Positions 3,487 through 61,312 of a DNA stretch of 64,000 bases are shown piece by piece. The translations under genes were made by a program, and so were the position numbers. The notes below the pieces were generated by a model. The model did not search any database. It was not told where the DNA came from and saw only the letters and a program-made list of their open reading frames with translations. Origin of the DNA: Thermoanaerobaculia bacterium (GTDB lineage: Bacteria > Acidobacteriota > Thermoanaerobaculia > Gp7-AA8); contig DASVEE010000015.1 in NCBI GenBank assembly GCA_036380735.1, positions 48,954 through 112,953 on the forward strand, written 5' to 3'. The number at the start of each line of letters is the position of its first letter. Position 1 is the stretch's first letter.

Positions 3487-3637
3487 GGCCACACCCCCCC
3501 GGAGACACCCCTGCCAGTACACCGCGCATTACTACGAGAGGACATTCCAGGGATCGACTTAGCAACGGCACTGCCAAGGTGCACAGGGAAAGCGGCAGAT
3601 GGGGGGTATGAATAAAAAATGACACCAAAGAGAACGA

Positions 3638-3758
3638 GAGGACGAATAGGACAGATAGGACGAATAGGACCTATAGGACCGCCGCCCAAACCCCGCGCGG
3701 AACTGCCCATGGGACCCCGGTGTCCTATTGGTCCTATGGGTCCTATTCGTCCTATCGT
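3638..3758. repeat. Tandem-repeat-armed hairpin element (GAATAGGAC 9-mer arms)
   Basis: gaggacgaataggacagataggacgaataggacctataggac ... gtcctattggtcctatgggtcctattcgtcctatcgttcc. Confidence 0.8.
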
Positions 3759-6539: not shown

Positions 6540-7744
6540 CGACCGCCCTCACCAACGAACTGATGAACGATCTTCGCGAGCGGGGAGCGGAGCGCTTCTC
6601 GCAGCTCGGCTGGCCGACGACGCGCATCGAGGAATGGCGCTACACGAACCTGGCGAACGTCGCCAAGGTGGCGTGGCGCAGCGATGACGCGCCGAAAGTG
6701 ATCGAGACGCCGGCGACGCTGGCGGGTCGCGCGACCGTCGAGCTGCTCTTCGTCAACGGACGCCTCGTGCGCACGACGGGCGAAGCGCTGCAGCCGGTCG
6801 AGGCCGAGCGCATCGGCAGCGTCGCGGACTTCGAGAGCCACGCCATGATCGCGCTCAACGCCGCGGAGATGCAGGACGGCGCGCGCTTCCGCGTGCCGGA
6901 CAACGCGGTCGTCGACGGCTTCATCCATCTCCTGTTCGTCGGCAGCGGCGACGGGATCTGGTCGCATCCGCGCAACGTCATCGACGTCGGGCGGAACGCG
7001 CAGGTGCGCATCGTCGAGACCTACGTCGGCAGCGGTGAGTACTTCACGAACGCCGTGACGGAGCTGCTCGCCGCCGAAGGCGCCGTCGTCGATTACACGA
7101 AGGTGGTGTGCGAGGCGGAGAGCGCCACGCACGTCGGCAGCGTGCACGTGCGGCAGGAGCGCTCGTCGAGCGTGACGCTGCACAACATGTCGATCGGCGG
7201 CGCGCTGATCCGCAACGACGTCTACGCGGCCCTGACCGGTGAGGGCGCGAGCGTCGCGCTCGAAGGCCTCTTCGCCGGCGCCGGGAAGCAGCACATCGAC
7301 AACCACACCGTCATCGATCACGTCAGCCCGCACTGCGACAGCCTGGAGCTCTACAAGGGCGTCCTCGACGACCAGGCGCGCGGCGTGTTCGACGGGCGCA
7401 TCATCGTCCGTCCGAACGCCTCGAAGACGGCCTCGAAGCAGTCGAACCACAACCTCCTGCTGTCGGAAACGGCGATCGTCGATTCGAAGCCGACGCTGGA
7501 GATCCACAACGACGACGTGAAGTGCAACCACGGCTCGACGATCGGACAGATCGACGAGGAAGCGCTCTTCTACCTCCGCTCGCGCGGCATCGGCGAGGCG
7601 GAAGCACGCAACCTCCTGGTCTACGCCTTCGCGGCCGAAGTCGTCGACCGCATCAAGATCGAGCCGGTGCGCGAGCAGATCCGGCGCGCGTTGTTCCGCG
7701 CGATTCCGGCGCGCCTGCCGGAGCGCAGGGGAGGTCCACGATGA
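6536..7744 (+). CDS. sufD: Fe-S cluster assembly protein SufD
   Basis: SufB paralog lacking the Cys-rich region, positioned between sufC and sufS; stops and starts overlap. Confidence 0.8.
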
Positions 7745-10764: not shown

Positions 10765-11271
10765 ATGTACTGTACGAATTGCGGAAATGATCGTCCCGAC
10801 AATCATCAGCCGTGTCCCAACTGCGGGGCCGTGCCTCAGCATGTGCCGCCGGCATCGCAGCAGCAGTTCGGCTCGTCGCCACAGGAGTTTGGCCAGGTAG
10901 GCAATCCCCAGGGGCAGTACACGCCGCCTCCTCCGCCGTCGATCGGTGGACCGGGGTACGGCGGGCCGGGTGGTCCCGGGATGCCGGTGGGCACGAAGGT
11001 GCCGAACTACCTCATCTTCTCGATCATCATGACGATCTGCTGCTGCCCCCTCGGCTCGCCGTTCGGGATCGTGTCGATCATCTTCGGCGCGTCGGTGAAC
11101 AGCAAGCTCGCCGCGGGTGACTACGCCGGGGCGCAGAAGGCGTCGGCCAACGCGCGCCTGTGGCTGATCATCGGTCTGGTGGTCGCGCTGGCCGGGATGA
11201 TCCTCTCGTTCTTCATGGGTGGTTTCGAGGACATCACGCGGTTGATGAATGAAGGCGCTGCGAATCGCTAG
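10765..11271 (+). CDS. Zinc-ribbon / proline-rich / DUF4190 (CD225-like) membrane protein
   Basis: CTNCGN...CPNCGA zinc ribbon, PPPPPS proline tract, then two-TM IFSIIMTICCCPLGSPFGIVSIIFG...LIIGLVVALAG region typical of DUF4190. Confidence 0.55.
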   Translation: MYCTNCGNDRPDNHQPCPNCGAVPQHVPPASQQQFGSSPQEFGQVGNPQGQYTPPPPPSIGGPGYGGPGGPGMPVGTKVPNYLIFSIIMTICCCPLGSPFGIVSIIFGASVNSKLAAGDYAGAQKASANARLWLIIGLVVALAGMILSFFMGGFEDITRLMNEGAANR

Positions 11272-19223: not shown

Positions 19224-19330
19224 AAAGGACGGAAGGGACCGATGGACCGATCGGACAGACCGCGCAAGTCCGGGTGGGCGGGGTCCCATCCGTCCTATCG
19301 GTCATATACGTCCCATTCGTTCCATCGTCC
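19224..19330. repeat. Tandem-repeat-armed hairpin element (GGACCGAT / GTCCTAT-type arms)
   Basis: aaaggacggaagggaccgatggaccgatcggacag ... gggtcccatccgtcctatcggtcatatacgtcccattcgttccatcgtcc. Confidence 0.7.
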
Positions 19331-20036: not shown

Positions 20037-20798
20037 TCATTTCGCGCTGAGCGCCTTCGCCTCGCGCAGCATCTCGTCGGCGCGGGCCCGGACGCGGTAA
20101 TCCTCCGTCAGGTTGCGCCAGCGCACGACGCCGTTGCGATCGATCAGGAACTCCGCCGGCCGTGCGGTCGGTCCGCCGCCCATGCCGGATTTCTCGTGGA
20201 GCAGGTCGTAGCGGCGAATGACGTTACCTTTAGGATCGCCGAGAAATGTGTACGAAAATGCAGATCCGTAATGCTTCTTGGTGACCTCGGCGGGATCGAT
20301 GCTGATCGCGATCGGCTTCACGCCGGCCGCTTCGAATTCGGGAAGACGCTGCTGGATACTCCGTAACTCGGAGTTGCAGAACGGTCACCAGTAGCCGCGG
20401 TAGAAGATGAGCAGGACGCCGTTCGAGCCGGCGAGCGTCTGCGACAGCGTGACCGGCTTGCCGTTCGTGTCGGCCAGCGTGAAGTCGGGCGCCTTCTGTC
20501 CCGGAGCCGGCGAGCCCGCCGCGCCCGGCATCCCGCCGCGCGTGGAGGCGATCGCGAAGACGAAGGCGCCGGCGATGACCACCCCCAGCACGGCCACGAT
20601 CGAGGCCAGCACTTTTTTCGGCGCCCGTCGCCAGCCGGTGACGAGGAGCACCAGCGCGAGGACGAAAAGGGCGTAGTTCACCCAGGGCACATCGCGCGTG
20701 ACGGGATAGTTGACGAACACCGTGAAGTAGGTGAGGAACGCGGCCACACAAAGCAGTAGCCCCGTCCAGAGCGGCCAGTTGAAGCGTTTCTGCTGCAT
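20037..20798 (-). CDS. Redoxin (AhpC/TSA / thioredoxin-fold) with in-frame TGA at the first Cys of the CxxC motif; candidate selenoprotein (UxxC), or a pseudogene
   Basis: One continuous reading frame across two ORF-track fragments; ...GVLLIFYRGYW-TGA-PFCNSELRSIQQRLPEFEAAGVKPIAISID...; the TGA at 20385-20387 falls exactly where Cys is expected; N-terminal TM anchor. Confidence 0.55.
20345..20384 (-). promoter_or_regulatory. Candidate bacterial SECIS-like stem-loop immediately 3' of the in-frame UGA
   Basis: mRNA CUGC-A-ACUCCG-AGUUA-CGGAGU-AUCCA-GCAG beginning about 8 nt after the UGA: 6-bp upper stem, 5-nt loop, 4-bp lower stem. Confidence 0.3.
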
Positions 20799-20872: not shown

Positions 20873-20914
20873 GGGGTCCTATAGGTCCTATCCGTCCATA
20901 CGTCCTATCGTCTC
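20873..20914. repeat. Single-arm GTCCTAT-type tandem array
   Basis: ggggtcctataggtcctatccgtccatacgtcctatcgtctcc; no clear complementary arm. Confidence 0.6.
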
Positions 20915-22950: not shown

Positions 22951-23096
22951 GAACTTCGAATGAAGAATTTCGAATGAAGAATTGAGGTGCGCCGCTTCGC
23001 GGCGGCGCTGTTCATAGCTGCGGTGGCGAAGCCACCGCACACCACAATTCGAAATTCGAACCTCTTCATTCGAACTTCGAAATTCGCCTCTCCTCG
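22951..23096. repeat. Tandem-repeat-armed hairpin element (GAATGAA/GAATTTC/GAACTTC heptamer arms) with long GC-rich core
   Basis: gaacttcgaatgaagaatttcgaatgaagaattg ... aattcgaaattcgaacctcttcattcgaacttcgaaattcg; the core is itself palindromic (cgcttcgcggcggcgctg ... cggtggcgaagccaccg). Confidence 0.85.
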
Positions 23097-24280: not shown

Positions 24281-24362
24281 TTATGGGACTAATAGGGCAC
24301 ACACTTCTGCCTCTGTCCTATACGTCCCATTCGTCCTATCGGTCCTATACGTCCTATCGTTC
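24281..24362. repeat. GTCCTAT-type tandem array with weak complementary left arm
   Basis: tatgggactaatagggcac ... tgtcctatacgtcccattcgtcctatcggtcctatacgtcctatcgttcc. Confidence 0.65.
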
Positions 24363-26703: not shown

Positions 26704-26805
26704 GAATTAAGAATTTCGAATTTCGAATGAAGAATGGCTGCGCTGTCCGGGGGCAGACCGTGGGTGGGGGGGACTTCGAAATTCGAAATTCGAAATTCTT
26801 AATTC
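26704..26805. repeat. Tandem-repeat-armed hairpin element (GAATTTC/GAATGAA heptamer arms), core GGCTGCGCTG...
   Basis: gaattaagaatttcgaatttcgaatgaagaat-ggctgcgctgtccgggggcagaccgtgggtggggggga-cttcgaaattcgaaattcgaaattcttaattc. Confidence 0.85.
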
Positions 26806-26912: not shown

Positions 26913-27911
26913 ATGGTCCTGATCAACAAGGCGATCAACGAGGTGACGGTCAAGCTGGTCTACTACGGCCCGGGCCTCTGCGGCAAAACCACGAACCTGG
27001 AAAAGATCTACGGCAACCCGAAGCTCGAGAACAAAGGGAAGATGATCTCGATGGCGACGGAGACCGACCGGACGCTGTTCTTCGACTTCATGCCGATGGA
27101 GCTCGGCACGATCGCCGGGCAGAAGGTGCGTGTGCAGCTCTACACGGTGCCGGGGCAGGTGTTCTACGACGCCACGCGCAAGCTCGTCCTGCGCGGCGCC
27201 GACGGCGTCGTCTTCGTGGCCGACTCGCAGAAGTCGATGCGCGAGTCGAACCTCGTCAGCCTGGAGAACCTGAAGACGAACCTGCGCATCAACCGCATCG
27301 ATCCGGACAAGGTGGCGATCGTCTTCCAGTACAACAAGCGCGATCTGCCGACGGCGGCCACGGTCGAAGAGATGACGGAGTACCTCGAGCCGGGCAATGC
27401 GCCGATCGTCGAAGCGTCGGCCATCAACGGCGCCGGCGTGACGGCGACGCTGCGCGCGGCGGTCTCGAAGATCCTCGACAACCTGAAGAACAACGTCGAC
27501 GTGACGCTGTACGAAGCGGCGCCGCTGGCCGCGCCCGACATGACGCAGAAAGCGGGCGTGACGCCGTCGTCCGCCGGCACGCCGAAGCTGTCGATGAAGA
27601 ACGAAAACCTCATGCGCACCGACCCGGTGCCGGTCGCGTCGTTGCCCCCGGAGCCCGAGCCCGCGCCCTTCGAGGTGCCGTTCGCCGCCGTCGAAGCCGC
27701 GGTCGATACCGCCTTCGACAGCGCCATCGACACCTCGATCGCGGTCGAAGTCCAGGACGATCCGTTCGCCTCGCATCACGAAGAGGAGCCGCGCATCGAC
27801 CTCTCCGCCATGCTGGCAAGCGCCCGCGCGGTCGTGGCGTCGCTGGAAGCCGCGCTGGAAAAAGCGCGGGAACATGAACGGTCGATCCAGGAACAGATGA
27901 ACCGCGGATAG
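26913..27911 (+). CDS. MglA-like Ras-superfamily small GTPase with about 130-aa low-complexity C-terminal extension
   Basis: VKLVYYGPGLCGKTTNLEKI (P-loop), LYTVPGQ (switch II), FQYNKRDL (NKxD); no MglB/roadblock partner adjacent; gene bracketed by two same-family repeat hairpins. Confidence 0.75.
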   Translation: MVLINKAINEVTVKLVYYGPGLCGKTTNLEKIYGNPKLENKGKMISMATETDRTLFFDFMPMELGTIAGQKVRVQLYTVPGQVFYDATRKLVLRGADGVVFVADSQKSMRESNLVSLENLKTNLRINRIDPDKVAIVFQYNKRDLPTAATVEEMTEYLEPGNAPIVEASAINGAGVTATLRAAVSKILDNLKNNVDVTLYEAAPLAAPDMTQKAGVTPSSAGTPKLSMKNENLMRTDPVPVASLPPEPEPAPFEVPFAAVEAAVDTAFDSAIDTSIAVEVQDDPFASHHEEEPRIDLSAMLASARAVVASLEAALEKAREHERSIQEQMNRG

Positions 27912-27915
27912 GCCG

Positions 27916-28010
27916 GAATTTCGAATGAAGAATTTCGAAGTTCGAATGAAGAATGGCTGCTGGCCAGTGCGTTTCTAAATTCAACATTCGAAATTCGAAA
28001 TTCTTCATTC
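27916..28010. repeat. Tandem-repeat-armed hairpin element (GAATTTC/GAATGAA heptamer arms), core GGCTGCTGGCCAGTGCG
   Basis: gaatttcgaatgaagaatttcgaagttcgaatgaagaat ... aaattcaacattcgaaattcgaaattcttcattc. Confidence 0.85.
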
Positions 28011-28072
28011 ACCGTTTCCCTCATCCTCACGTCGTTCCTACTCCCCACCTGTTATAAAGTGCCCCCCGCCCA

Positions 28073-28786
28073 ATGACCTGGTACCAGGAATGGTTCGGCG
28101 AGGAGTACCTCGAGCTCTACGCCTACCGCGATGAAGAGGAAGCGCGGCAGCAGGTCTCCTTCTTTCGCGAGCAGTGCGGCCTCTTTCGCGGACCGGTGCT
28201 CGATCTCGCGTGCGGGATGGGTCGGCACATGGACGAGCTGCGCACCGCCGGCTACGAGCCCGTCGGCTGCGACCTCTCCTACACGCTGCTGCGCACCGGC
28301 ATCACGCAATACGGCACGATGCCCGTCGTGCGGGCCGACATGCGCAGCCTGCCGTTCTGTGACGACACGTTCGACGGCCTGGTCAACTTCTTCACGAGCT
28401 TCGGCTACTTCGCCACGGAAGACGAAAACCTCCAGGTCGTCCGCGAGATGGCGCGCGTCCTCAGCAACAACTCGCCCTTCCTCTTCGACTACCTCAACGT
28501 CCATCGCGAGCTCGAGAAGATGGTGCAGCGGGAGACGCGCACGACGCCGACGGGCGAGGTGAAGCTCGAGCGCTGGTTCGACGGATCTGACCGCTCCTTC
28601 AACAAGCGGATAACGATCGGTGACAAGCGCTATCTGGAGCGGGTTCGCGGCTACGATCTCGACGAAATCTCGATGATGTTCACTTCCTGCAACCTCGCGA
28701 TCCGCAGCGCCTTCGGCGACTTCGACGGCTCGCCGTTCACGCACACCTCGCCGCGGCTGATCCTCGTCGGGAGCTACATCCGATGA
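28073..28786 (+). CDS. Class I SAM-dependent methyltransferase; candidate N-methyl-bacillithiol synthase (NmbA-like), by context
   Basis: VLDLACGMGRH (motif I); overlaps the bshC start (ATGA). Confidence 0.6.
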   Translation: MTWYQEWFGEEYLELYAYRDEEEARQQVSFFREQCGLFRGPVLDLACGMGRHMDELRTAGYEPVGCDLSYTLLRTGITQYGTMPVVRADMRSLPFCDDTFDGLVNFFTSFGYFATEDENLQVVREMARVLSNNSPFLFDYLNVHRELEKMVQRETRTTPTGEVKLERWFDGSDRSFNKRITIGDKRYLERVRGYDLDEISMMFTSCNLAIRSAFGDFDGSPFTHTSPRLILVGSYIR

Positions 28787-30333
28787 GCGAGCCCGGTTGT
28801 CTCCGCGCGCCGCTGGCGCGCTATCCGGGCTTCAATCGCTTCGTCCTCGACTGGCTTTCCTCACGGGAGAGCGCCGTGCGCTTCCTGCCGCGCGCGACGG
28901 AGCTTCGCGAGCGCGGAGCGCAGTCGCCGGAAGTCAGCCAGCGCAAAGCCGAAGTCGCGAATGCGCTGATCGCGACGAACCAGCGCTGGGGCCTCTTCGT
29001 CGAGAACGACGTCCGCCAGTGGGAGTCCGGCGAAGCGGTGACGCTCGTCGCCGGGCAGCAGGTCGGCTTCGCCGGCGGGCCGCTCTACACGCTGGCGAAG
29101 ATCGCGTCGCTCGTGCGCATGAAGCGCGACCTCGAAGCGCAAGGCCGGAAAGCGACCGCGTTCTTCTGGCTGGCGACCGAGGATCATGATTTCGACGAAG
29201 TGGCGAACATCGCGCTGCCGGTGCAGTCGATCGGCGGCGAGAAGAGCGTCAACCGGCAGCTCGACCTCCTGAAGCTGCGCGCCGTGCGCGGGCTCGACGG
29301 GCACTCCGTCGTCGGTTCGCTGCCGCTGCCCGAGGTGCTGATCGCGCAGCTCCTCTCCGTGTACGACATGCCGCGCCCGTCGTGGCTGCGCGAAGGAGTG
29401 AACTTCCGCGACTCGTTCGCGGAGCTGCTGGCCACCGTCTTCGGCGGCGAGATCGTCCTCATCGACGCACTGCAGCCGGAACTGCGCCGCGCCGCCGCAC
29501 CGCTCTTCGACGCCATCACCGCGAAGTGGGACGACGTGCAGCACGCCATCGGCGCGCGCTCGGTGGAGTTGCAGCAGGCCGGCTACGCGCAACAGGTCGT
29601 GCCGCGCGAAGGGGAGTCGTACACGCTGCTCTTTCACGTCTACGAAGACGGCACGCGCAGCGCCCTCGGGCGGCCCGAGCAGCTCGTGCCGGAGCAGACG
29701 TCGACCTCCGCGCTCACACGCCCGCTGCTGCAGGACTTCGTGCTGCAGCCGGACGTCTTCGTCGGCGGTCCCGCCGAAGTCGCCTACTACGCGCAGATCG
29801 CCCCGCTCCACGACCTCCTCGGCGTGCCGATGCCGCGCGTCGCGTTACGCGCGCACGCACTCGTCGCGCCGAAACGCAACGTGCGGGCGATGGAGCGGCT
29901 GCACATCTCCGCCGACGAAGTGTTCGCCAGCGCCGACGAGATCGTCGCCGCTCGTGAGCCTGAGGGCGTGGCGCGCGTGCGCGAGCTCGCCGACGCCGCG
30001 CACAAGGAGCTGCTGACGCGGATCGAGGAGCTCGGGCAGATCGCGCTGCCGGCCGATCACGCGCTGGCGCGCGCGTTCAACCGTTCCGTCGGCCACATCG
30101 AGTTTCATTTCGGGAAGCTCGCCGAGCGCTCCATCAAAGGGCTCGTGCGGAAGGACAAGGAGCGTCACGCCGCCGTGCGCGAGCTCGTGGCCACGCTCTA
30201 TCCCGACCGTCACGTGCAGGACCGCGTCGTGTCGTGGTTCTCGTACTGGTGCCACTATGATCGGTACCTCGTCGACCGTCTGATCGACTGCGTCGAGCCC
30301 GATTCCGATTCCTTTGTGATCGTAGGTCTATGA
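28783..30333 (+). CDS. bshC: Bacillithiol biosynthesis cysteine-adding enzyme BshC
   Basis: 516 aa; BshC/YllA-family architecture and length; sits in an operon with bshB and bshA. Confidence 0.65.
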   Translation: MSEPGCLRAPLARYPGFNRFVLDWLSSRESAVRFLPRATELRERGAQSPEVSQRKAEVANALIATNQRWGLFVENDVRQWESGEAVTLVAGQQVGFAGGPLYTLAKIASLVRMKRDLEAQGRKATAFFWLATEDHDFDEVANIALPVQSIGGEKSVNRQLDLLKLRAVRGLDGHSVVGSLPLPEVLIAQLLSVYDMPRPSWLREGVNFRDSFAELLATVFGGEIVLIDALQPELRRAAAPLFDAITAKWDDVQHAIGARSVELQQAGYAQQVVPREGESYTLLFHVYEDGTRSALGRPEQLVPEQTSTSALTRPLLQDFVLQPDVFVGGPAEVAYYAQIAPLHDLLGVPMPRVALRAHALVAPKRNVRAMERLHISADEVFASADEIVAAREPEGVARVRELADAAHKELLTRIEELGQIALPADHALARAFNRSVGHIEFHFGKLAERSIKGLVRKDKERHAAVRELVATLYPDRHVQDRVVSWFSYWCHYDRYLVDRLIDCVEPDSDSFVIVGL

Positions 30334-31052
30334 GCGAACAAGTCGACATCATCTTCTTCGGCGCGCATCCGGACGACGTCGAGCTCTCCTGCGGCGGCAC
30401 CGTCGCCAAATTCGTGAAAGACGGCGTGCGCGTCGGCATGGTGGACCTCACGCGCGGCGAGATGGGGACGCGCGGCACGCCGCAGACGCGGAAGCGCGAA
30501 GCCGCCGCCTCGGCGAAGATTCTCGGCGCGGCCTTCCGCGAGCAGCTCGACTTCGGCGACGGCGACCTCCGCACCGGCCGCGAGGAACAGTTGCAGGTCA
30601 TCGACGTCATCCGCCGCTACCGGCCGAAGGTCATCTTCACCGCGTGGCCGGACGAGCGTCATCCCGATCACGAGCGCGGCGGCCGGCTGGTCACCGAAGC
30701 CTCGTTCTACGCCGGCCTCAAAGCGCTGGAGACCAAGTACCCCGTGCACCGGCCGCAGACCGTCGTGTACTACCTGCAGAACTACGTCCTCGCGCCGACG
30801 TTCGTCGTCGACGTGACGAGCGCGTGGAAGACGAAGATGCGCTCCGTCGCCGCGTTCAAGTCGCAGTTCTACGACCCGAATTCGAAAGAGCCGAAGACGG
30901 TGCTCTCCGACCCCAGGTTCCTCGAAATGATCGACGCCCGCGGCCGCCACTTCGGCGCGTTGATCGGCGTGAAGTACGGCGAAGCGTTCCTCACGAAACA
31001 GCCGCCGCGGATCGATGATGTGGTGGCTGCGTACAGCGGGCGTGAGGTCTAG
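30330..31052 (+). CDS. bshB: Bacillithiol biosynthesis deacetylase BshB (LmbE/PIG-L family)
   Basis: IIFFGAHPDDVELSCGGT...HPDH LmbE motifs. Confidence 0.75.
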   Translation: MSEQVDIIFFGAHPDDVELSCGGTVAKFVKDGVRVGMVDLTRGEMGTRGTPQTRKREAAASAKILGAAFREQLDFGDGDLRTGREEQLQVIDVIRRYRPKVIFTAWPDERHPDHERGGRLVTEASFYAGLKALETKYPVHRPQTVVYYLQNYVLAPTFVVDVTSAWKTKMRSVAAFKSQFYDPNSKEPKTVLSDPRFLEMIDARGRHFGALIGVKYGEAFLTKQPPRIDDVVAAYSGREV

Positions 31053-32165
31053 ATGAGAATCGGCATCACCTGCTATCCCACTTTCGGCGGTTCCGGCGTC
31101 GTGGCCACGGAGCTCGGTCTCGCCCTGGCGAAGCGGGGCGACGACGTGCACTTCATCAGCTACGCGCTGCCGTCGCGGCTGAACATCCTCCACGAGCGCG
31201 TGCACTTCCACGAGGTCACGGTCACGCCGTACCCGCTGTTCGATCCGTATCCTCCGTACACGCTCGCCCTGGCGACGAAGATGGCAGAGGTCGCGGCGTA
31301 CGAGCGGCTCGACGTGCTGCACGTCCACTACGCGATCCCCCATGCGATCAGCGCGCATCTCGCGAAGCAGATCCTGGCGAACCAGAAGCTGAAGGTCGTC
31401 ACCACGCTGCACGGCACCGACATTACGCTCGTCGGCCGCGACCCCAGCTACCTGCCCATCACCAAGTTTGGCATCGAGGTATCGGACGGCGTCACGGCTG
31501 TCTCGCAGTGGCTGAAGCGGGAGACGGCGCAGAACTTCGCGACCGACAAAGCCATCGAGGTGATCCCCAACTTCGTCGACCCGCAGCGCTTCCGCCGCAC
31601 CGACCAGGCGTATTGCCGGCAGTTCGGCGCGCCGGGCGACAAGCTGCTCTGCCACGTCTCCAACTTCCGCCCGGTGAAACGGATCATGGACGTCGTGGAG
31701 GTCTTCGAGCGCGTCGCGCGTGAAGTCCCGAGCCGCCTGCTGATGGTCGGCGACGGCCCCGATCGTTCGCGCGCCGAGGCGTACTGCCGCGATCACGGCC
31801 TCCGCGACCGCGTCATCTTCATCGGCAGCGTCCCCAACCTGGAAGAGATCGTCGGCTCCACGGACCTCTTCCTGCTGCCCTCGGACGCCGAGTCGTTCGG
31901 TATGGCGGCGCTGGAAGCGCTGGCCTGCGAAGTCCCGGTCATCGCCACGCGCGCCGGAGGCCTACCCGAGGTCGTCGACGACGGCGAAACCGGCTTCCTG
32001 CTGCCGGTGGCGGATGTCGACGGCATGGCTGCCAGAGCCATCGAGATCCTGCGCGACGACGCCCTGCGGAAGAAAATGGGCGCCCGCGGCCGGGAACTGG
32101 CCATTGAGAGGTTCGACGTGAACCGGATTGTGCCCAAGTACCGCGAACTGTACGAAAGCGTGTAG
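31053..32165 (+). CDS. bshA: N-acetyl-alpha-D-glucosaminyl L-malate synthase BshA (GT4 glycosyltransferase)
   Basis: [22 protein letters not shown]... GT4 fold; adjacent to bshB and bshC. Confidence 0.7.
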
Positions 32166-32170
32166 CAGGG

Positions 32171-32296
32171 GAACGATAGGACCTATAGGACGAATAGCAC
32201 CTATAGGACGGATAGGACCCCGCCACCCGAGATCCGCCTTTGACGTTGTCCTCTAGGTCCCATCCGTCCCATCCGTCCTATAGGTCCTATCGTCCC
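32171..32296. repeat. Tandem-repeat-armed hairpin element (ATAGGAC 9-mer arms) between bshA and the slt gene
   Basis: aacgataggacctataggacgaatagcacctataggacggataggac ... gtcctctaggtcccatccgtcccatccgtcctataggtcctatcgtcccc. Confidence 0.8.
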
Positions 32297-32297
32297 C

Positions 32298-34718
32298 TCA
32301 CGGTTCCGCGCGAATGCCGCCAGCCGGGCCACTTCCTCCGTAGATCTCGTTGTACCTTTCGTACGAGTTCATCACTTTGCGGATGTAGTGTTTCGTCTCG
32401 TCGAAGTTAACGGAGGACAGGAAGAAGTCATCCCCTGCGGCGGGCTGGATGCGCGACCACAGGGCGACCTGTTTCGGGCCGGCGTTGTAGGCCGCGGCGA
32501 CGCGGTAGCGGTTGCCGCCGAGTTGCTCCGACAGTTCGCTGACGTACTTGGCGCCGAGCTGGATGATCACCCTCGGGTCGTACAGATCCTCCGGGTCGAC
32601 GTCGACGAGGCCGATGCCGCGGCCGATCTCGCGTGCGGTGGTGATGATGAACTGCAGCAGGCCGCGCGCCGCCGCGACCGACTTTGCGCGCGGGTTGAAG
32701 CGCGACTCTTCGCGCATGATCGACAGCACGAGCGTCGGGTCGGCGCCGAAGCGTTTGGCGTCGGCCGTGATGAACTCGTGGAAGTAGCGCGGGTAGAGCA
32801 GCTCGCGCACGCGGCGCGGCAGCAGCTCCGGGTAGAAGTCCTTCGGCACGCGGTTCATCATCACTTCGATCGCGTAGATCGATTCGCGCGACGCGCTCCC
32901 TCGGTTCAGCGCCAGCGAGCGCGTCAGCGCTTCCTTCGCCGGGCGCAGGTCCCACCGCCGGGTGATGTCGTCGACCGCTTCGTCGTGCAGCCCCATCGCC
33001 ATCAGCAGCAGCGCGCGGTTGTCCGACTCCATCGGGAGCTTCGGGAACGCGTGCGGCTCGAGCGACAGCACCGCCTTGTAGACGCCGAGCTGCTCGTAGA
33101 TCTGGCGCAGGATCGCGAGCTGCTTCGCGTGATCGCGCGACGACAGCAGCAGGCGATCCGTCTGGATCTCCTTCGCTTCCTCGAACTTCTTCTCCGCCAT
33201 CAGCGTGCGCACCTGCGCTTCGCGGCGCGCCAGCTCCTGCGCCAGGCGCGGCGCCATCTGCGCCGAGTCGAGCCGCCGCCGCGCAAAGTACGCAAAGTGC
33301 GCCGGGACGTCGGAGCGCAGGACCGTCAGGTAGTCGCGGAACGCACCCGCGGGATCGCCCGCTTCGAGGGCACGCGCTCGCCAGTACGCAAACTCCGCTT
33401 CGTCGTAGCCGTCGAGCAGCGCGCGCGGCACGGCGTTCAGCGTGCCCACCGCGGCGGTGTGCTGGTTGCGGCCGATCATGCCGATCGCATACGCCAGCGA
33501 CCCTTCGAGCACCGCGCGCTCGTTCGGCGCCAGCTTGCGCAGCAGCGCGAGATCGCCTTGCGCTTCGGCCAGACGTCCGGCGCGTAGCCGCGTACGCAAC
33601 CGCTGCGTCAGCGCGGCCAGCGTCGCAGGGAACTTCCCCGGGATGGCGATCGACTGCGTCATCAGCTTCTCGGCCGTTGCATCGTCGCCGCGCAACTGCG
33701 CCGCACGCGCGGCGTGCCAGAGGAACGTGACCTTCTGCTCCGGCTTTTGCGTCGCCGCCGCACCGGCCAGGTACGTCCGCTGCGCCTCGGCGAACTGCTC
33801 GTTGCCGAAGTAGCTGCGCCCGAGGGCGAAGCGGAGATCGTCGGCGCGCTGGGGGAGGCGGGGGATGGCCATCGACAGCAGCGCCACGGCGCGCGCGTAG
33901 TGGCGGTGATTGCGGAACGTTTCGCCGAGGAGCGCCCACTGCTCCGGGTTCATGCGGCGGATCAGCTCCGGACGGTCGAGCGCGCGCGAGATGCGGTCGG
34001 ACGCGTCGTCCGTCGAGTTGCCGCGCAGCAGCGGGATCCCGTTCGCCAGCGCGCGCTCCTCGTCGCCGCCGCGTACGAGCGTGGCCACGATGCGTGCGTC
34101 GATGTCGCGTTTCTGCTGCGGCGTGGCCGTCACGTTAAGGCGCATGGCGAACGAGAGGAGGGGCCGTGCGTCCTCGAGCCCGCCGAGGTATTCCAGCTCC
34201 TCCTCGATGGCGGTGTCGCGATACATCGCGTCGGGCATGCTGAAGATCAGCGTGTGGCGCGTCTTGCTCGCCGCGGCCGCGTCTCCGCCGGCGTCATCGA
34301 GCGCGGCGCGGTGATACAGCGCCAGCTCGCGGAACGGATTCCCCTCGGCCAGAAACGGCGCGAGGCGCTGTCCCGCTTCCTCGCGGTCGTTCTCCTCGAT
34401 GAGCGCGCGGGCGTGGAGGTAGCCGAGCGACCACTGCTGGTACTCCTTCGGATGCTTCTTCTCGATCTCGTCGAGGAGGTCGTCGAGCGCCGAGGGGTTC
34501 AGTTGCTGGAAGGTCTCGGTCCACTGCTCGACCGGCGGGATGCCGGCGGGCGGTTGCGGTTTCACCTCTCCCGCGGTCGTGCGGAAGACGCGATGGCGGC
34601 GGACGCGCTGCCGGGCGAGGTAGATGGCGGCGAGGGTGACGATCAGGACGAGAGCGACGAGACTGAGGAGGATTACGCGTCGTGGGACGCGTCGATGTTC
34701 ATCGTGTTTCTCGGTCAT
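32298..34718 (-). CDS. Soluble lytic murein transglycosylase (Slt family) with long superhelical N-terminal domain
   Basis: C-terminal SLT catalytic motif (ESRFNPRAKSVAAARGLLQFI...AYNAGP); 806 aa. Confidence 0.8.
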   Translation of the reverse strand: MTEKHDEHRRVPRRVILLSLVALVLIVTLAAIYLARQRVRRHRVFRTTAGEVKPQPPAGIPPVEQWTETFQQLNPSALDDLLDEIEKKHPKEYQQWSLGYLHARALIEENDREEAGQRLAPFLAEGNPFRELALYHRAALDDAGGDAAAASKTRHTLIFSMPDAMYRDTAIEEELEYLGGLEDARPLLSFAMRLNVTATPQQKRDIDARIVATLVRGGDEERALANGIPLLRGNSTDDASDRISRALDRPELIRRMNPEQWALLGETFRNHRHYARAVALLSMAIPRLPQRADDLRFALGRSYFGNEQFAEAQRTYLAGAAATQKPEQKVTFLWHAARAAQLRGDDATAEKLMTQSIAIPGKFPATLAALTQRLRTRLRAGRLAEAQGDLALLRKLAPNERAVLEGSLAYAIGMIGRNQHTAAVGTLNAVPRALLDGYDEAEFAYWRARALEAGDPAGAFRDYLTVLRSDVPAHFAYFARRRLDSAQMAPRLAQELARREAQVRTLMAEKKFEEAKEIQTDRLLLSSRDHAKQLAILRQIYEQLGVYKAVLSLEPHAFPKLPMESDNRALLLMAMGLHDEAVDDITRRWDLRPAKEALTRSLALNRGSASRESIYAIEVMMNRVPKDFYPELLPRRVRELLYPRYFHEFITADAKRFGADPTLVLSIMREESRFNPRAKSVAAARGLLQFIITTAREIGRGIGLVDVDPEDLYDPRVIIQLGAKYVSELSEQLGGNRYRVAAAYNAGPKQVALWSRIQPAAGDDFFLSSVNFDETKHYIRKVMNSYERYNEIYGGSGPAGGIRAEP

Positions 34719-36947: not shown

Positions 36948-36955
36948 TCTAGCCC

Positions 36956-37027
36956 GAGGACGAATAGGACCTATGGGACGCCCTATTTGTCCCATCTGTC
37001 CTATAGGTCCTATTCGTCCTATCGAGC
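36956..37027. repeat. Tandem-repeat-armed hairpin element (ATAGGAC 9-mer arms, very short loop)
   Basis: gaggacgaataggacctatgggacg-ccctatttgtcccatctgtcctataggtcctattcgtcctatcgagcc. Confidence 0.75.
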
Positions 37028-39297: not shown

Positions 39298-40485
39298 ATG
39301 GAACTCGACATCTTCTTTTCGATCTGCCAGACGGAAGTGAACGGCTATCTGCCGAGCGAGCGCGTCATGTTCGAGAACTTCTTCGAACAGGTCGACCTCG
39401 CCGACCGCCTCGGCTTCGGCACCGCGTGGGTGGCGGAGAGCCATCTCTCCACGGAAGTGCAGAAGACGAACCCCGGCGCGGTGATCCCTCACTTCGTCGG
39501 CGAGATCGGGCTCAACACCGACATTCTCCAACTCGCGCACAAGGTGTTCGCGCGGACGAAGCGGATCGGCATCGGCTCCGCGATCCTCAACATCCTCTGC
39601 AACGGCGGCCCGATCGCGCACGCGGAGCGGATCAAGACGTTCCTCTCGCTCCATGGGCTCGACCCGCACGAAACGCGCACGCTGACGATCGGCTTCGCGT
39701 CCGGCCGCTTTCCCTTCATCAACATCCCGTACGGCATCGTGCCGCGGAATGCGGTGGAGGAGGCGGCGTGGCCGGTGGTGAAGAACAAGATCTTCGAGGA
39801 GGCGACGGAGATTTTTCTCCGCCTGCTCAAAGGGGAGACGCTCAACTCCTCGATGATTGCCACGCGCACGATGAAGCGGGCCGACTTCCGCAAAGACGAG
39901 GACTGGCAGCGTGTGCAGGAAGCCTACGGGCAGCCGGCGGAGGAGATTCCGCTCGCCGCGCGCTGGCCGTTCCCCAACCTCAAGATCGTGCCCGAGGAGC
40001 CGCGGATGGAACTGCTGCGCCTCTCGATCGGCTCGCACGACCCGGCTACGCAGATCTTCGCCAACACGATCCTCCCGGTCGGCGTCTTCAACCTCTCGAT
40101 CACCCCTGGGGACGAGATCGAGAAGACGAACGAGCGGATGCAGACGCACTACCACCCCGACGGCGGCGGCTGGCAGCGCCGGCTGATGCCGCGGACGGTC
40201 CTGGTCTTCATCAACGACGACGATCCGGCGAAGGCGCACCAGGAGGCGCGCGACGCGCTGTCCAACTACTGGCGCGCGCTCGAAGGGACTCTGGACGAGG
40301 AGAAAGTGCGCCGCGCCACGAACAACGCGCTGGTCGGCAACGCCGAACAGATCGCCGCCCAGATGCAGGAGCGCTTCCATTCGGACGACCGCCTGATGCT
40401 GTGGTTCGACTTCAATAATCACGACTCGAAGAGAGTCATGAAAAACATGCACGATTTCATGACGAAGATACCGCATAACAAATAG
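39298..40485 (+). CDS. LLM-class (luciferase-like) flavin-dependent oxidoreductase
   Basis: Bacterial-luciferase TIM-barrel family features; start at MELDIFFSI. Confidence 0.6.
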   Translation: MELDIFFSICQTEVNGYLPSERVMFENFFEQVDLADRLGFGTAWVAESHLSTEVQKTNPGAVIPHFVGEIGLNTDILQLAHKVFARTKRIGIGSAILNILCNGGPIAHAERIKTFLSLHGLDPHETRTLTIGFASGRFPFINIPYGIVPRNAVEEAAWPVVKNKIFEEATEIFLRLLKGETLNSSMIATRTMKRADFRKDEDWQRVQEAYGQPAEEIPLAARWPFPNLKIVPEEPRMELLRLSIGSHDPATQIFANTILPVGVFNLSITPGDEIEKTNERMQTHYHPDGGGWQRRLMPRTVLVFINDDDPAKAHQEARDALSNYWRALEGTLDEEKVRRATNNALVGNAEQIAAQMQERFHSDDRLMLWFDFNNHDSKRVMKNMHDFMTKIPHNK

Positions 40486-40594
40486 GACGAATAGGACGAA
40501 TAGGACCAACAGGACCGATGGGACCGACAGCACCTACCGACAGCCGGGCGCAGCGTCCCGTTCGTCCTATTCGTCCTATAGGTCGTCCTATCGT
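40481..40594. repeat. Tandem-repeat-armed hairpin element (ATAGGAC 9-mer arms), core contains GGGCGCAGC
   Basis: aataggacgaataggacgaataggaccaacaggaccgatgggaccgacag ... gtcccgttcgtcctattcgtcctataggtcgtcctatcgttgcc. Confidence 0.75.
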
Positions 40595-45384: not shown

Positions 45385-46311
<927 letters not shown>

Positions 46312-46419: not shown

Positions 46420-47880
46420 ATGAATCCAATCCTCAAGGCTTACGTAGTCCCTGGACAGCCCCACATTCTTCTCGGCGATCGGCAGAACGCCGGCTGGGCC
46501 AAACTGAAACATGCCTACGAACAAATCGGTCGTGAGATCGAACGGTCCGGGGCGGAGCTGATTCTCCTTTACTCGACGCAGTGGTTCTCCGTCATCGGGC
46601 ATCTGTTCCAGATCGATCCGCGGCCGAAGTGGACGCTGGTCGATCAGAACTGGTACGAGCTCGGGGAAATCCCTTACGAGTTTCGTGTCGATCCGAACTT
46701 CGGGGAGCTGTATTGCCGCACGGTGAAAGACGCGGGGATGCAGGCGGCGACGGTCGCGTATCACGGCTTTCCGATCGACACCGGGACGGTCGTGGCGCTG
46801 AAGCTGATGAACCCGAACAACGCGGTGCCGGCGTCGATGGTCTCGTGCAACATCTACGCGGAGCGCGAGGAGACCCGCGCCCTCGGCTTCGCCGCACGCA
46901 AAGCGATCGAGGCGTACGGGAAGAAGACGATCGTCGTCGCGGTGACGAACTTCTCGAACCGCTACGAGGTGGCGGAGATCGATCCGGCGAAGGACCGTAT
47001 CTCCTCGCAGAAGGATGACGAGTGGAACCGTAAGCTCCTCGAGATGTTCGCCGAGGGGCGGCTGGAGGATGTGGCGCAGGTGGCGCGTGATTTTGCGCGC
47101 GAGGCCAACGCCGACATGGGCTTCAAAGCCATCTGGTGGCTCGGCGCGGTGATGGGGGAGCACAACAGGTACGACGGCAAGGTGTGGGAGTACCAGCCTG
47201 TCTGGGGCACCGGCAGCGCCATCGTCGAGCTGACCCCGAACGACCGCAAGCAGATCGACTGGGAGAAAGAGTTCGACGAAGGACCGGTCCCGGTCTTCGA
47301 CAGCGCGGGCTCCGGCGGTTCCAGCGGCACCGGCCTGGAAACGCACAACGTGCTGGAACGCGGGCCCGATGTGCACCAGCAAAGCGAAATGAACTCCCAG
47401 GAGGATTCCTCGACGGGACGGTCCAGTCCGATGAGGTCCATCAGTCCTCTACGTGCGATCGGTCCTGATGACACCGCGGTGCGCACCGATCGCGCGCCTG
47501 CGCCGGTCGGCCCGTATCCGCACGCGCGGCGTGTCGGTGATTTCCTGTTCCTTTCCGGGATCGGGCCGCGCAAGCCGGGAACGGGGGAGATCCCGGGGCT
47601 CATTCGGGATGCGGCGGGCTCGGTGATCGATCACGACATCGAGGTGCAGACGCGCGCGTGCATCGAGAACATCCGCGCGATCCTGGAGGACGCGGGCAGC
47701 TCGCTGGAGAAGGTGCTCGACGTGACGGTGTACCTCACCGACATGCAGCGCGATTTCGACCGCTTCAACAAGGTCTACGCCGAGTACTTCGGGCAGATCC
47801 AGCCGACGCGCACGAGCGTCGGGGTCGATTCGCTGCCGACGCCGATCGCCGTGGAGTTGAAAGTGATCGCGGCGCGATGA
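46420..47880 (+). CDS. Fusion protein: LigB-family AmnA-like domain + Ser/Gly-rich linker + RidA/YjgF-family (AmnD-like 2-aminomuconate deaminase) domain
   Basis: N-terminal about 300 aa paralogous to the preceding gene (ILLYSTQWFSVIGH...); C-terminal about 130 aa with the RidA fold (PAPVGPYPHARRVGDFLFLSGIGP...VTVYLTDM...F); single ORF of 486 aa. Confidence 0.6.
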   Translation: MNPILKAYVVPGQPHILLGDRQNAGWAKLKHAYEQIGREIERSGAELILLYSTQWFSVIGHLFQIDPRPKWTLVDQNWYELGEIPYEFRVDPNFGELYCRTVKDAGMQAATVAYHGFPIDTGTVVALKLMNPNNAVPASMVSCNIYAEREETRALGFAARKAIEAYGKKTIVVAVTNFSNRYEVAEIDPAKDRISSQKDDEWNRKLLEMFAEGRLEDVAQVARDFAREANADMGFKAIWWLGAVMGEHNRYDGKVWEYQPVWGTGSAIVELTPNDRKQIDWEKEFDEGPVPVFDSAGSGGSSGTGLETHNVLERGPDVHQQSEMNSQEDSSTGRSSPMRSISPLRAIGPDDTAVRTDRAPAPVGPYPHARRVGDFLFLSGIGPRKPGTGEIPGLIRDAAGSVIDHDIEVQTRACIENIRAILEDAGSSLEKVLDVTVYLTDMQRDFDRFNKVYAEYFGQIQPTRTSVGVDSLPTPIAVELKVIAAR

Positions 47881-54830: not shown

Positions 54831-56432
54831 ATGAACAGCATCCGCACACTTTCGGCCGCGCTCGCGCTCGCGCTCCTCGTCGCCTCGCCGCTCCTCGCGG
54901 CGACGACGAAGACGAGCAAGTTCGAGCGCGCACTGCCGCTCGGCATGGCCGGCGTCCTGACGGTCCGCACCACGACCGGCAGCGTCGAGGTCGTCGGCGT
55001 CGATGAAGGTGGTGTGCGCTTCACCGCGATCAAAACCGTCACCGCGTTCAACACCGACAAGGAGAAGGAAAAGGCGCTCCTCGCCGAGGCCGACCGCCTG
55101 GTCGAGCTCCGCGAGGCCGTTTCCGCCGACGGCCGCAACGCCCTGATCCACACGCTCGCGCCGGCGATGAGCGGCCGTGGCTGGCGCGTCGACGTGCGCT
55201 ACGTCGTCTGGATGCCGCGCACCGCCGATCTGCGCGTCGAGGTCGTCAAATCGCAGCAGATCCGCGTCGTGAACATGATCGGCAACGTCAGCGTGAAGAA
55301 CTTCTCCGGCACGATCGTGCTGGAGCGTGTCACCGGCGTTGCCAACGTCGAAAGCACCAACGGCGGCATCGTCTACATGCCGCAGCAGCGCCTCGGCGGC
55401 AACGTCACGCTGAAGACCGTCAACGGCAACATCGAGGCGATCGTCCCCGACGGCATCGGGTTCCAGTGGGCCGCGGAAGCGCTCGCGGGCGATGTACGCT
55501 CGACGATCCCCGGCGTGCGTGGGCGGCTCAGCGGCCCCGCGTTCCGCGGCAGCGTCAATGCTCCGGGCGGACCGACGCTGACGACGGCCACCGTCACGGG
55601 CAACGTGTTCCTCCTCCGCGCCGGTACGCAGGCCGCGGCGGCGCGTTCTCTGCGCGAGACGATTCCGCAGGCGCCCGTTCCGCCGTCGCAACAGCAGCCG
55701 GCCGCGGCGACGCTGGCCGCCTCACGTGCCGGACGGCGCGACATGACGCAGCAGTTCGTCCAGGGACGCGTCGATTTCGCCACGAACATCGGCGACATCT
55801 CCATCAGCGAGCTGCGCGGCGACGCCACGCTCTCCACCGGCGCCGGCGAAGTCCGCCTCGGCACCGTGACCGGCACCTGCCGCGTCACGTCGCTCGGCGG
55901 GCCGCTCGAGCTGGGCGACATTTTCGGGTTGCTCGATGCCCGGACGCAGGCCGGCGACGTCACGATCCAGGCCGCGCGTTCCGGCGGCTCCGTGCAGACC
56001 GGCGGCGGCATCATCCGCCTGGTGTATGCCGGCGGACCGACGTCGCTGAGCTCGGCCGGCGGCGACATCATCGTGCGCCAGGCCGCGTCCTCGGTGAACG
56101 CGGAGACGCGCTCGGGCGACATTTCCATCTCCGTCGATCCCGGCGCCAAGACCCAGCGTCTCGGCGCGAAGACGGCGAAGGGGAACGTCGTGCTGTTCCT
56201 CCCTCCGCGCTTCGGCGCCGACGTCGACATCACCGTCATCACGACGGATGCGAATGCGACGCACCTCATCGAGTCGTCTTTCGGCGCGCTGAGCGTGCAG
56301 AGGGAACAGATCGCCGGCGGCAAGACCCGCCTCCGCGCCAGCGGCAAGATCAACGGCGGCGGCGAGCGCCTGGAGCTGTTCGCCGAAGGTGGCGGCGTGC
56401 AGATCAAGACGCAGCCGGTGCCGGGCCGCTGA
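54831..56432 (+). CDS. Secreted DUF4097-family (putative adhesin / beta-helix) protein
   Basis: Signal peptide; repeated GDV/GNV beta-strand units (VNGNIEA, TGNVFL, AGDVTIQA, GGDIIV, SGDISIS, KGNVVL). Confidence 0.65.
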   Translation: MNSIRTLSAALALALLVASPLLAATTKTSKFERALPLGMAGVLTVRTTTGSVEVVGVDEGGVRFTAIKTVTAFNTDKEKEKALLAEADRLVELREAVSADGRNALIHTLAPAMSGRGWRVDVRYVVWMPRTADLRVEVVKSQQIRVVNMIGNVSVKNFSGTIVLERVTGVANVESTNGGIVYMPQQRLGGNVTLKTVNGNIEAIVPDGIGFQWAAEALAGDVRSTIPGVRGRLSGPAFRGSVNAPGGPTLTTATVTGNVFLLRAGTQAAAARSLRETIPQAPVPPSQQQPAAATLAASRAGRRDMTQQFVQGRVDFATNIGDISISELRGDATLSTGAGEVRLGTVTGTCRVTSLGGPLELGDIFGLLDARTQAGDVTIQAARSGGSVQTGGGIIRLVYAGGPTSLSSAGGDIIVRQAASSVNAETRSGDISISVDPGAKTQRLGAKTAKGNVVLFLPPRFGADVDITVITTDANATHLIESSFGALSVQREQIAGGKTRLRASGKINGGGERLELFAEGGGVQIKTQPVPGR

Positions 56433-56515
56433 TCGGACGAATCGGACCTACAAGACCAAAGCGCCGGTCCCATTCGTCCTATAGGTCCTATTCGTCCTAT
56501 TTGTCCTATCGGACC
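56431..56515. repeat. Tandem-repeat-armed hairpin element (GGACGAAT / GTCCTAT-type arms)
   Basis: gatcggacgaatcggacctacaagacc-aaagcgccg-gtcccattcgtcctataggtcctattcgtcctatttgtcctatcggaccc. Confidence 0.75.
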
Positions 56516-56601
56516 CATCCTGCGGCCACCATTGCGTCCCACCGGTTTTCCCGCATAGCATTCGCCGCCTGTATGAACCGCTGATCCGGAGGACTTTCCA
56601 T

Positions 56602-61274: not shown

Positions 61275-61312
61275 CTGTCCTATACGTCCCATACGTCCTA
61301 TAGGTCCTATTA
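61275..61312. repeat. Single-arm GTCCTAT-type tandem array
   Basis: tgtcctatacgtcccatacgtcctataggtcctatt. Confidence 0.6.

Follow-up and report, generated by a model that had tools for sequence, protein, structure and literature searches.

What does a methyltransferase gene do at the head of a bacillithiol operon? The question is raised by a 64,000-nucleotide stretch of DNA (here called the window) from an uncultured soil bacterium of the class Thermoanaerobaculia (Acidobacteriota; contig DASVEE010000015.1), in which a gene for a class I S-adenosylmethionine (SAM)-dependent methyltransferase (hereafter MT) stands immediately upstream of three genes for the synthesis of the thiol bacillithiol (BSH). 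The enzyme that makes N-methyl-bacillithiol (N-Me-BSH) is known from Chlorobaculum tepidum: the N-Me-BSH synthase NmbA (CT1040), for which a structure (9RI2) is available (Hiras et al. 2018, PMC6282198; Hammerstad et al. 2025, PMC12719100). Judging from sequence comparisons, we consider it likely that the four genes of the window make up a single operon for the complete N-Me-BSH pathway. Three kinds of evidence underlie this reading: the identities of the genes, the homology of MT to NmbA, and the conserved linkage and fusion of the methyltransferase with bshC.

A first-pass annotation of the window had reported genes for MT, BshC, BshB and BshA, and all four open reading frames (ORFs) were confirmed, co-directional on the plus strand between 28073 and 32165 with unchanged coordinates (Table 1) and with HMM and PDB matches. 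The codon-position composition of each is of the coding type (GC3 0.89–0.91, GC2 0.41–0.43, in a genome of 66% G+C). Read from the sequence, the junctions between MT and bshC (cgATGAgc at 28783) and between bshC and bshB (ctATGAgc at 30330) are true four-nucleotide ATGA overlaps, as had been described. The third junction had been described as an ATG overlap, which did not hold: the TAG of bshB is followed directly by the ATG of bshA (31050–31055), with zero spacer and no overlap. Start and stop codons that overlap or abut point to joint synthesis of all four proteins from a single mRNA, and we infer that MT-bshC-bshB-bshA are co-transcribed and translationally coupled. A site scan detected neither a sigma-70-like promoter nor an intrinsic terminator in 27700–32400, and hence none within the gene block, so that the boundaries of the operon are placed on the basis of flanking hairpins (described below) and gene orientation only.

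Both BshA and BshB1 pass the cut-offs of the corresponding NCBIfam equivalog models. BshA scores 530.9 bits against TIGR03999 (cut-off 273.7) over its full length (residues 1–369), and the best PDB matches of this GT4 protein are BshA structures (2JJM, 3MBO and 5D00, E 1e-109 to 1e-117). BshB1 scores 288.3 bits against TIGR04001 (cut-off 182.5) and 100.6 bits against the Pfam family PF02585; its best PDB match is BshB1 (6P2T and 6ULL, E 5e-47), and the LmbE/PIG-L metal motifs AHPDD and HPDH can be read in its sequence. In the case of BshC, two Pfam domains (PF10079, 139.5 bits; PF24850, 40.7 bits) exceed the gathering score of 27. The sole PDB match is Bacillus subtilis BshC (4WBD, E 3.6e-26, 95.6 bits), and in the alignment with 4WBD the motif blocks GQQxGxxGGPLYT, EDHD and GGPxExxYW are kept.

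The same three families, BshA, BshB1 and BshC, are found in B. subtilis, and solved Bacillus proteins are the best or only PDB matches of the window enzymes, although the window BshC is divergent from its Bacillus counterpart. The gene arrangement differs, however. In B. subtilis the bsh genes occupy two loci, with bshA and bshB1 in a ypjD-mgsA-bshB1-bshA operon and bshC alongside panE (PMC5790435). The first-pass annotation called the bsh genes of Firmicutes scattered, which fits only in part, given the co-transcription of bshA and bshB1 there. The Bacillus loci are without a methyltransferase, whereas in the window an nmbA-like gene and all three bsh genes form one compact unit.

If these assignments are correct, BshA would convert UDP-GlcNAc and L-malate to GlcNAc-malate, BshB1 would remove the acetyl group to leave GlcN-malate, and BshC would add cysteine to GlcN-malate to give BSH. 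MT, a predicted bacillithiol cysteine-N-methyltransferase of the NmbA type, would then use SAM to methylate reduced BSH on the amino group of its cysteine. The methyl acceptor would thus be BSH itself, and N-Me-BSH would be expected to serve as the main low-molecular-weight thiol of the organism.

How good, then, is the case for MT as an NmbA? Domain searches returned generic Pfam matches only (Methyltransf_25, Methyltransf_11 and Methyltransf_31), the top NCBIfam names were of the MenG/UbiE type at 47 bits, far under cut-offs, and the public annotation reads 'class I SAM-dependent methyltransferase'. Such results could be taken to indicate an enzyme unconnected with bacillithiol, a generic small-molecule or quinone (UbiE/MenG-like) methyltransferase lying upstream of bshCBA. 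No NmbA-named family was returned for MT by either the Pfam or the NCBIfam search, and neither collection holds an NmbA model; the generic and sub-threshold MenG, UbiE and daptide-methyltransferase names were rejected as functional calls. Comparison with solved structures tells against the quinone-type enzyme. The top PDB match of MT is C. tepidum NmbA (CtNmbA; 9RI2_A), with a phmmer E-value of 3.3e-26 and a score of 95 bits over residues 2–233 of 237, in an alignment that takes in the insertion following beta5 as well as the Cap-forming N-terminus. The runner-up (E 5.9e-10, 42 bits) covers the Rossmann core only, which gives the full-length NmbA match a margin of 53 bits over every other solved methyltransferase.

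In a pairwise comparison MT (237 amino acids) and CtNmbA (266 amino acids) are 32% identical over 231 of 237 residues (97% coverage, E 4e-34), the identity extending throughout and including the Cap-forming regions; CtNmbA residues 15–259 were rebuilt for this purpose from the PDB-search alignment, and the first 14 residues lie outside the comparison. MT thus qualifies as an NmbA homologue under the published definition, which asks for a BLAST E-value of at most 1e-20, coverage above 80%, identity above 25% and similar length (Hammerstad et al. 2025, PMC12719100). The two class I enzymes share motif I, VLD(I/L)ACGxGRH, which in MT reads VLDLACGMGRH (VLDLACGMG at 42–50) and is accompanied by the acidic residues D67 and D89. 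They also share the aromatic pair of SFGYF, Y112 and F113 of MT (the adenine-stacking GYF pair) aligning to Y134 and F135 of CtNmbA. An N-terminal W-x4-F-x3-Y-x3-Y block and a C-terminal SPR block, both in or flanking the Cap domain, are kept in MT, and all 15 columns that are invariant in an alignment of the family with CtNmbA are retained.

An AlphaFold2 model of MT (pLDDT 91) has a seven-strand Rossmann-like core with a four-strand sheet after beta5 (residues 153–192), the N-terminus being of low confidence (pLDDT 45–64). The nearest solved folds in a Foldseek search of the PDB are CypM, NmbA, 3D2L, CgnL and CcbJ, all with E-values of about 1e-18 to 1e-17; these neighbours, CypM, 3D2L and CcbJ among them, are the ones reported for CtNmbA and are mostly amine N-methyltransferases (PMC12719100). 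CypM (7WZG), CcbJ (4HGY) and TylM1 (3PFG), which have a four-strand Cap, share the fold of MT (Foldseek E 1e-18 to 1e-14, TM 0.65–0.77) and methylate amines with SAM, as is predicted for MT. They differ from MT in sequence (16–23% identity, E 1e-4 or worse), in their substrates, which are a peptide N-terminus, a lincosamide and amino sugars, and in lacking any bsh context.

The genomic context also ties MT to bacillithiol. As in C. tepidum, MT co-occurs with bshA, bshB and bshC. CT1040 stands alone in its genome, however (bshA is CT0548, bshB is CT1419 and bshC is CT1558), whereas MT heads a bshCBA operon, an arrangement that is kept in relatives. Among GTDB species representatives we found 35 relatives of MT (45–89% identity), comprising 33 from Thermoanaerobaculia/Acidobacteriota and two at 45–48%. 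The order MT-bshC-bshB-bshA recurs in about 30 Thermoanaerobaculia species, and in every relative with a long enough contig bshC lies directly downstream of MT, followed by bshB and bshA. The 45%-identical relative with this linkage is a Candidatus Multivoradales genome; in a 48%-identical Acidobacteriota metagenome-assembled genome (MAG) the MT-linked bshC is present but bshA was undetected.

MT is identical to HEX7151143.1 of a Thermoanaerobaculia MAG, and more than 2,000 close homologues are found in metagenomes from soil and elsewhere. When metagenome contigs were scanned with a profile as guide, 80 further, diverse MT loci (29–45% identity) were identified, 53 of them with at least 1.5 kb of downstream sequence. 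In 21 of these 53, bshC lies directly downstream on the same strand, five of the 21 running on through bshB and bshA and one through bshB only; no bsh gene was found near MT in the remaining 32. Gene tables add an MT-BshC-PIG-L-GT4 series on a 735-kb contig, an rlmH-MT-BshC series in a Gemmatimonadota MAG and two more MT-BshC cases. Altogether, about 55 independent loci, drawn from two or more phyla, have MT next to bsh genes on the same strand.

In addition, an exhaustive search of representatives uncovered a natural in-frame fusion of 807 amino acids, in which MT occupies residues 7–247 and BshC residues 339–790. Its 90% cluster has eight members. One 807-residue member is encoded by 15 contigs of independent assemblies, and PIG-L and GT4 genes come after the fusion gene in the three places shown (L125–L127, 5001–7424). 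The fusion locus matches the window operon, save that the first two genes are joined. Chance adjacency of MT and bshCBA was rejected on the strength of the conserved linkage and the fusion. Other fusions are found in the same methyltransferase family (P0247, which is MHC5056885.1 from a Planctomycetota MAG, and P0188), involving a GloB-like MBL-fold domain and a HAD phosphatase; the GloB-like domain is of the hydroxyacylglutathione hydrolase type, and this glyoxalase-II-like fusion likewise hints at thiol metabolism.

MT does not, then, group with unrelated small-molecule methyltransferases, nor is its position beside bsh genes peculiar to this genome. With same-strand adjacency in some 55 loci of two or more phyla, a stop/start overlap with bshC and an in-frame fusion to it, a quinone-type or other enzyme unrelated to bacillithiol is highly implausible. 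The proposal that MT is a candidate NmbA is instead strengthened, resting as it now does on its best solved relative, on the published homology thresholds, on linkage and on fusion.

Could the operon nevertheless make plain BSH only, with MT inactive or conditional and BSH as the working thiol? Most Acidobacteriota with BSH genes lack NmbA according to a RefSeq survey, which placed NmbA in only four of 51 BSH-positive Acidobacteriota, all of them Chloracidobacterium and with non-consecutive accessions, and listed the cultured member of the class, Thermoanaerobaculum aquaticum, as BshABC-only (PMC12719100). In C. tepidum, moreover, BSH is present alongside N-Me-BSH (PMC6282198). An idle methyltransferase is hard to reconcile, however, with the intact SAM-binding motifs of MT and its retention of every family-invariant residue, with its place at the head of the operon and its probable translational coupling, and with its strong conservation. 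Across relatives, identity to the window proteins is 70–89% for MT and 74–84% for BshA, above the 55–81% (mostly 56–62%) seen for BshC, which is the fastest-evolving gene of the operon (window and L002–L035); in the most distant relatives BshC falls to 27%, whilst MT is still at 45–48% and BshA at 56%. We regard production of BSH alone as very unlikely.

A more searching question is whether MT does exactly what CtNmbA does. In vitro, CtNmbA and the Paenibacillus polymyxa enzyme methylate BSH but not BSSB, glycine or GSH (PMC12719100). A neighbour-joining tree of the methyltransferases of all loci together with CtNmbA splits in two: MT belongs to a bshC-linked clade, and CtNmbA to a sister clade of stand-alone genes. 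The tree is midpoint-rooted and without bootstrap, and thus indicative only; of the experimentally validated members (C. tepidum, Polaribacter MED152 and P. polymyxa) it covers the C. tepidum enzyme. In the phylogenetic comparison, as proposed in the first-pass annotation, MT thus sits beside the subclade of the assayed enzyme and not within it.

On this basis the principal rival reading is that MT is an NmbA paralogue acting elsewhere in the BSH pathway, the end product being a BSH derivative other than N-Me-BSH. Methylation might take place on GlcN-malate, at its free amine, or on cysteine (activated or not) that BshC has yet to ligate; alternatively MT might carry out N,N-double or S-methylation. 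Besides the separation of the clades, the linkage and fusion of MT are specifically with BshC and not with BshA or BshB. The BshC reaction has yet to be reconstituted in vitro, and the activated form of cysteine that it uses is still not known (PMC5790435). TylM1 and DesVI, which are N,N-dimethyltransferases of amino sugars, are among the fold neighbours, and a secondary amine can be methylated by NmbA in vitro (PMC12719100).

Sequence conservation speaks for a shared function, however. Thirty columns that are at least 85% conserved carry the same residue in the bshC-linked and stand-alone groups, and the shared positions include the Cap-region residues W3, F8, Y12, Y16, K178 and R228. The family alignment contains no column that is conserved but different between the two clades, and thus no sequence sign of changed function. 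As for the individual targets, N-methyl-GlcN-malate would be a poor acylation acceptor, and in C. tepidum no N-methyl-cysteine was detected and BSH builds up in the nmbA mutant (PMC6282198). The published homologue set, furthermore, apparently already holds bshC-linked genes, because in Gemmatimonadota (e.g. Candidatus Palauibacter spp., Supplementary Dataset 1 of PMC12719100) the NmbA and BshC proteins have consecutive RefSeq accessions, a pairing like that of the window; bshB and bshA lie elsewhere in those genomes, whereas in the window lineage the four genes are together. A paralogue with a different product seems to us unlikely, if the most serious of the alternatives. A related idea, and one we hold to be rather improbable, is that the bshC-linked NmbA clade is a physical partner of BshC, methylating the cysteinyl moiety bound or channelled there or making a different methylated bacillithiol. 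Were it true, it would give a way into the BshC reaction.

Like the position of MT in the tree, several other observations weigh against reading the operon as an N-Me-BSH pathway. Activity has been demonstrated for CT1040, whereas for MT and the sister bshC-linked clade it is predicted from sequence, and the identity between MT and the assayed enzyme is low (the 32% given above). The modelled fold agrees with that of NmbA but does not discriminate it from other natural-product methyltransferases. Matched to 9RI2 in Foldseek, the model gives a TM-score of 0.72–0.74 and a root mean square deviation of 7.2 Å, a figure that is uninformative because AlphaFold mispredicts the NmbA Cap, which in the 9RI2 crystal has a distinctive narrow 'basket' topology (PMC12719100). 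The first-pass annotation had made its bshC call subject to HMM validation, and here the outcome is mixed: both Pfam domains, the match to 4WBD and the motif blocks uphold the call, but the score against TIGR03998 (236.3 bits) lies some 30 bits below the equivalog cut-off of 265.8. The rapid divergence of BshC may explain this sub-threshold score, and acidobacterial BshC proteins just under the NCBIfam cut-off may be missed by automated annotation. None of the BSH-dependent enzymes Brx, Bdr/YpdA, BstA and FosB was found in the roughly 15 kb on each side that were covered (11.7–24.3 and 32.3–53.1 kb). Finally, the 64 kb seen here are only part of the genome, so a second NmbA paralogue elsewhere is possible.

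Table 1 Genes of the operon and flanking hairpin elements, with positions in the window
Feature	Position	Strand	Remarks
nmbA-like class I SAM-dependent methyltransferase (MT)	28073–28786	+	237 amino acids; identical to HEX7151143.1
bshC, putative cysteine-adding enzyme of BSH synthesis	28783–30333	+	516 amino acids; start overlaps MT stop (ATGA)
bshB1, GlcNAc-malate deacetylase	30330–31052	+	240 amino acids; start overlaps bshC stop (ATGA)
bshA, UDP-GlcNAc:L-malate glycosyltransferase	31053–32165	+	370 amino acids; ATG abuts bshB stop
AT-rich palindromic repeat element of TTCGAATGAAGAAT units, long hairpin	27923–28010		Between GTPase gene and operon; minimum free energy -37.6 kcal/mol, z = -5.1
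Long hairpin of 9-nucleotide ATAGGACNN repeats	32168–32297		Between convergent bshA and lytic-transglycosylase genes; minimum free energy -67.8 kcal/mol, z = -8.1

The two hairpins listed in Table 1 probably mark the 5' and 3' boundaries of the transcription unit. The upstream element belongs to the TTCGAATGAAGAAT family, which is AT-rich in a genome of high G+C content and has seven matches in the window against 0.22 expected (22955–23074, 26722–26735 and 27920–27992). The downstream hairpin is not a classical terminator, since it has no T-tract. Its ATAGGACNN unit is far more frequent, with 53 matches in the window against 0.13 expected, forming intergenic arrays that are mostly inverted repeats (long hairpins) at 781–883, 3637–3755, 19283–19316, 20876–20891, 24283–24357, 32176–32290, 36955–37022, 40482–40579, 56432–56518 and 61277–61310. 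The exact pattern (an ATAGGAC repeat) has zero matches in 124 related loci (L001–L124) and thus looks like a genome-specific REP-like element. In one related species (L005) unrelated GGAGTGCGGTGACCGC-type hairpins lie upstream of MT and just after bshA (6834–6967 and 11020–11061); in a second relative checked (L016) no flanking hairpins were found. The flanking hairpins may therefore be conserved in position but not in sequence.

The neighbouring genes are unrelated to bsh. Upstream are a minus-strand Ser/Thr kinase gene with TPR repeats and a gene for a Ras/Arf-like small GTPase (26913–27911, plus strand), which has a C-terminal extension of about 140 residues rich in Ala, Pro and Glu and which immediately precedes the operon in most relatives within Thermoanaerobaculia. 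Downstream are the convergent gene for an SLT-domain protein, one for a small protein without a Pfam match, and proS. The sole redox-related gene seen at up to about 15 kb from the operon is a short minus-strand ORF (20037–20321) that covers the C-terminal half only of the AhpC/TSA peroxiredoxin profile and may be a truncated gene or one with a mis-set start. Further away, downstream of an aldehyde dehydrogenase gene, two adjacent plus-strand genes (45394–46311 and 46420–47880) encode LigB-family extradiol dioxygenases with no evident link to the bsh operon; a RidA/L-PSP domain is fused to the second.

N-Me-BSH, NmbA and the predicted presence of both in some Acidobacteria have already been published, and the operon adds an example that is well supported but unremarkable and leaves the known chemistry unchanged. 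Neither of the two NmbA papers (PMC6282198, PMC12719100) mentions operons, adjacency, nmbA-bshC linkage or fusions, and a term search of the lists of the RefSeq survey (PMC12719100) found no uncultured Thermoanaerobaculia genome. The additions made here are modest: the complete single-operon arrangement, the widespread nmbA-bshC pair together with its fusion, and the extension of the pathway to an abundant uncultured soil lineage. The conserved pairing and the natural fusion provide independent, context-based support for the functional assignment of a whole NmbA subclade. The four-gene operon and the fusion protein could, in addition, serve as ready-made constructs with which to produce N-Me-BSH in other hosts and to ask whether BshC needs a partner protein. 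If the reading preferred here is true, an abundant but uncultured lineage of soil Acidobacteriota would use N-methyl-bacillithiol as an antioxidant thiol.

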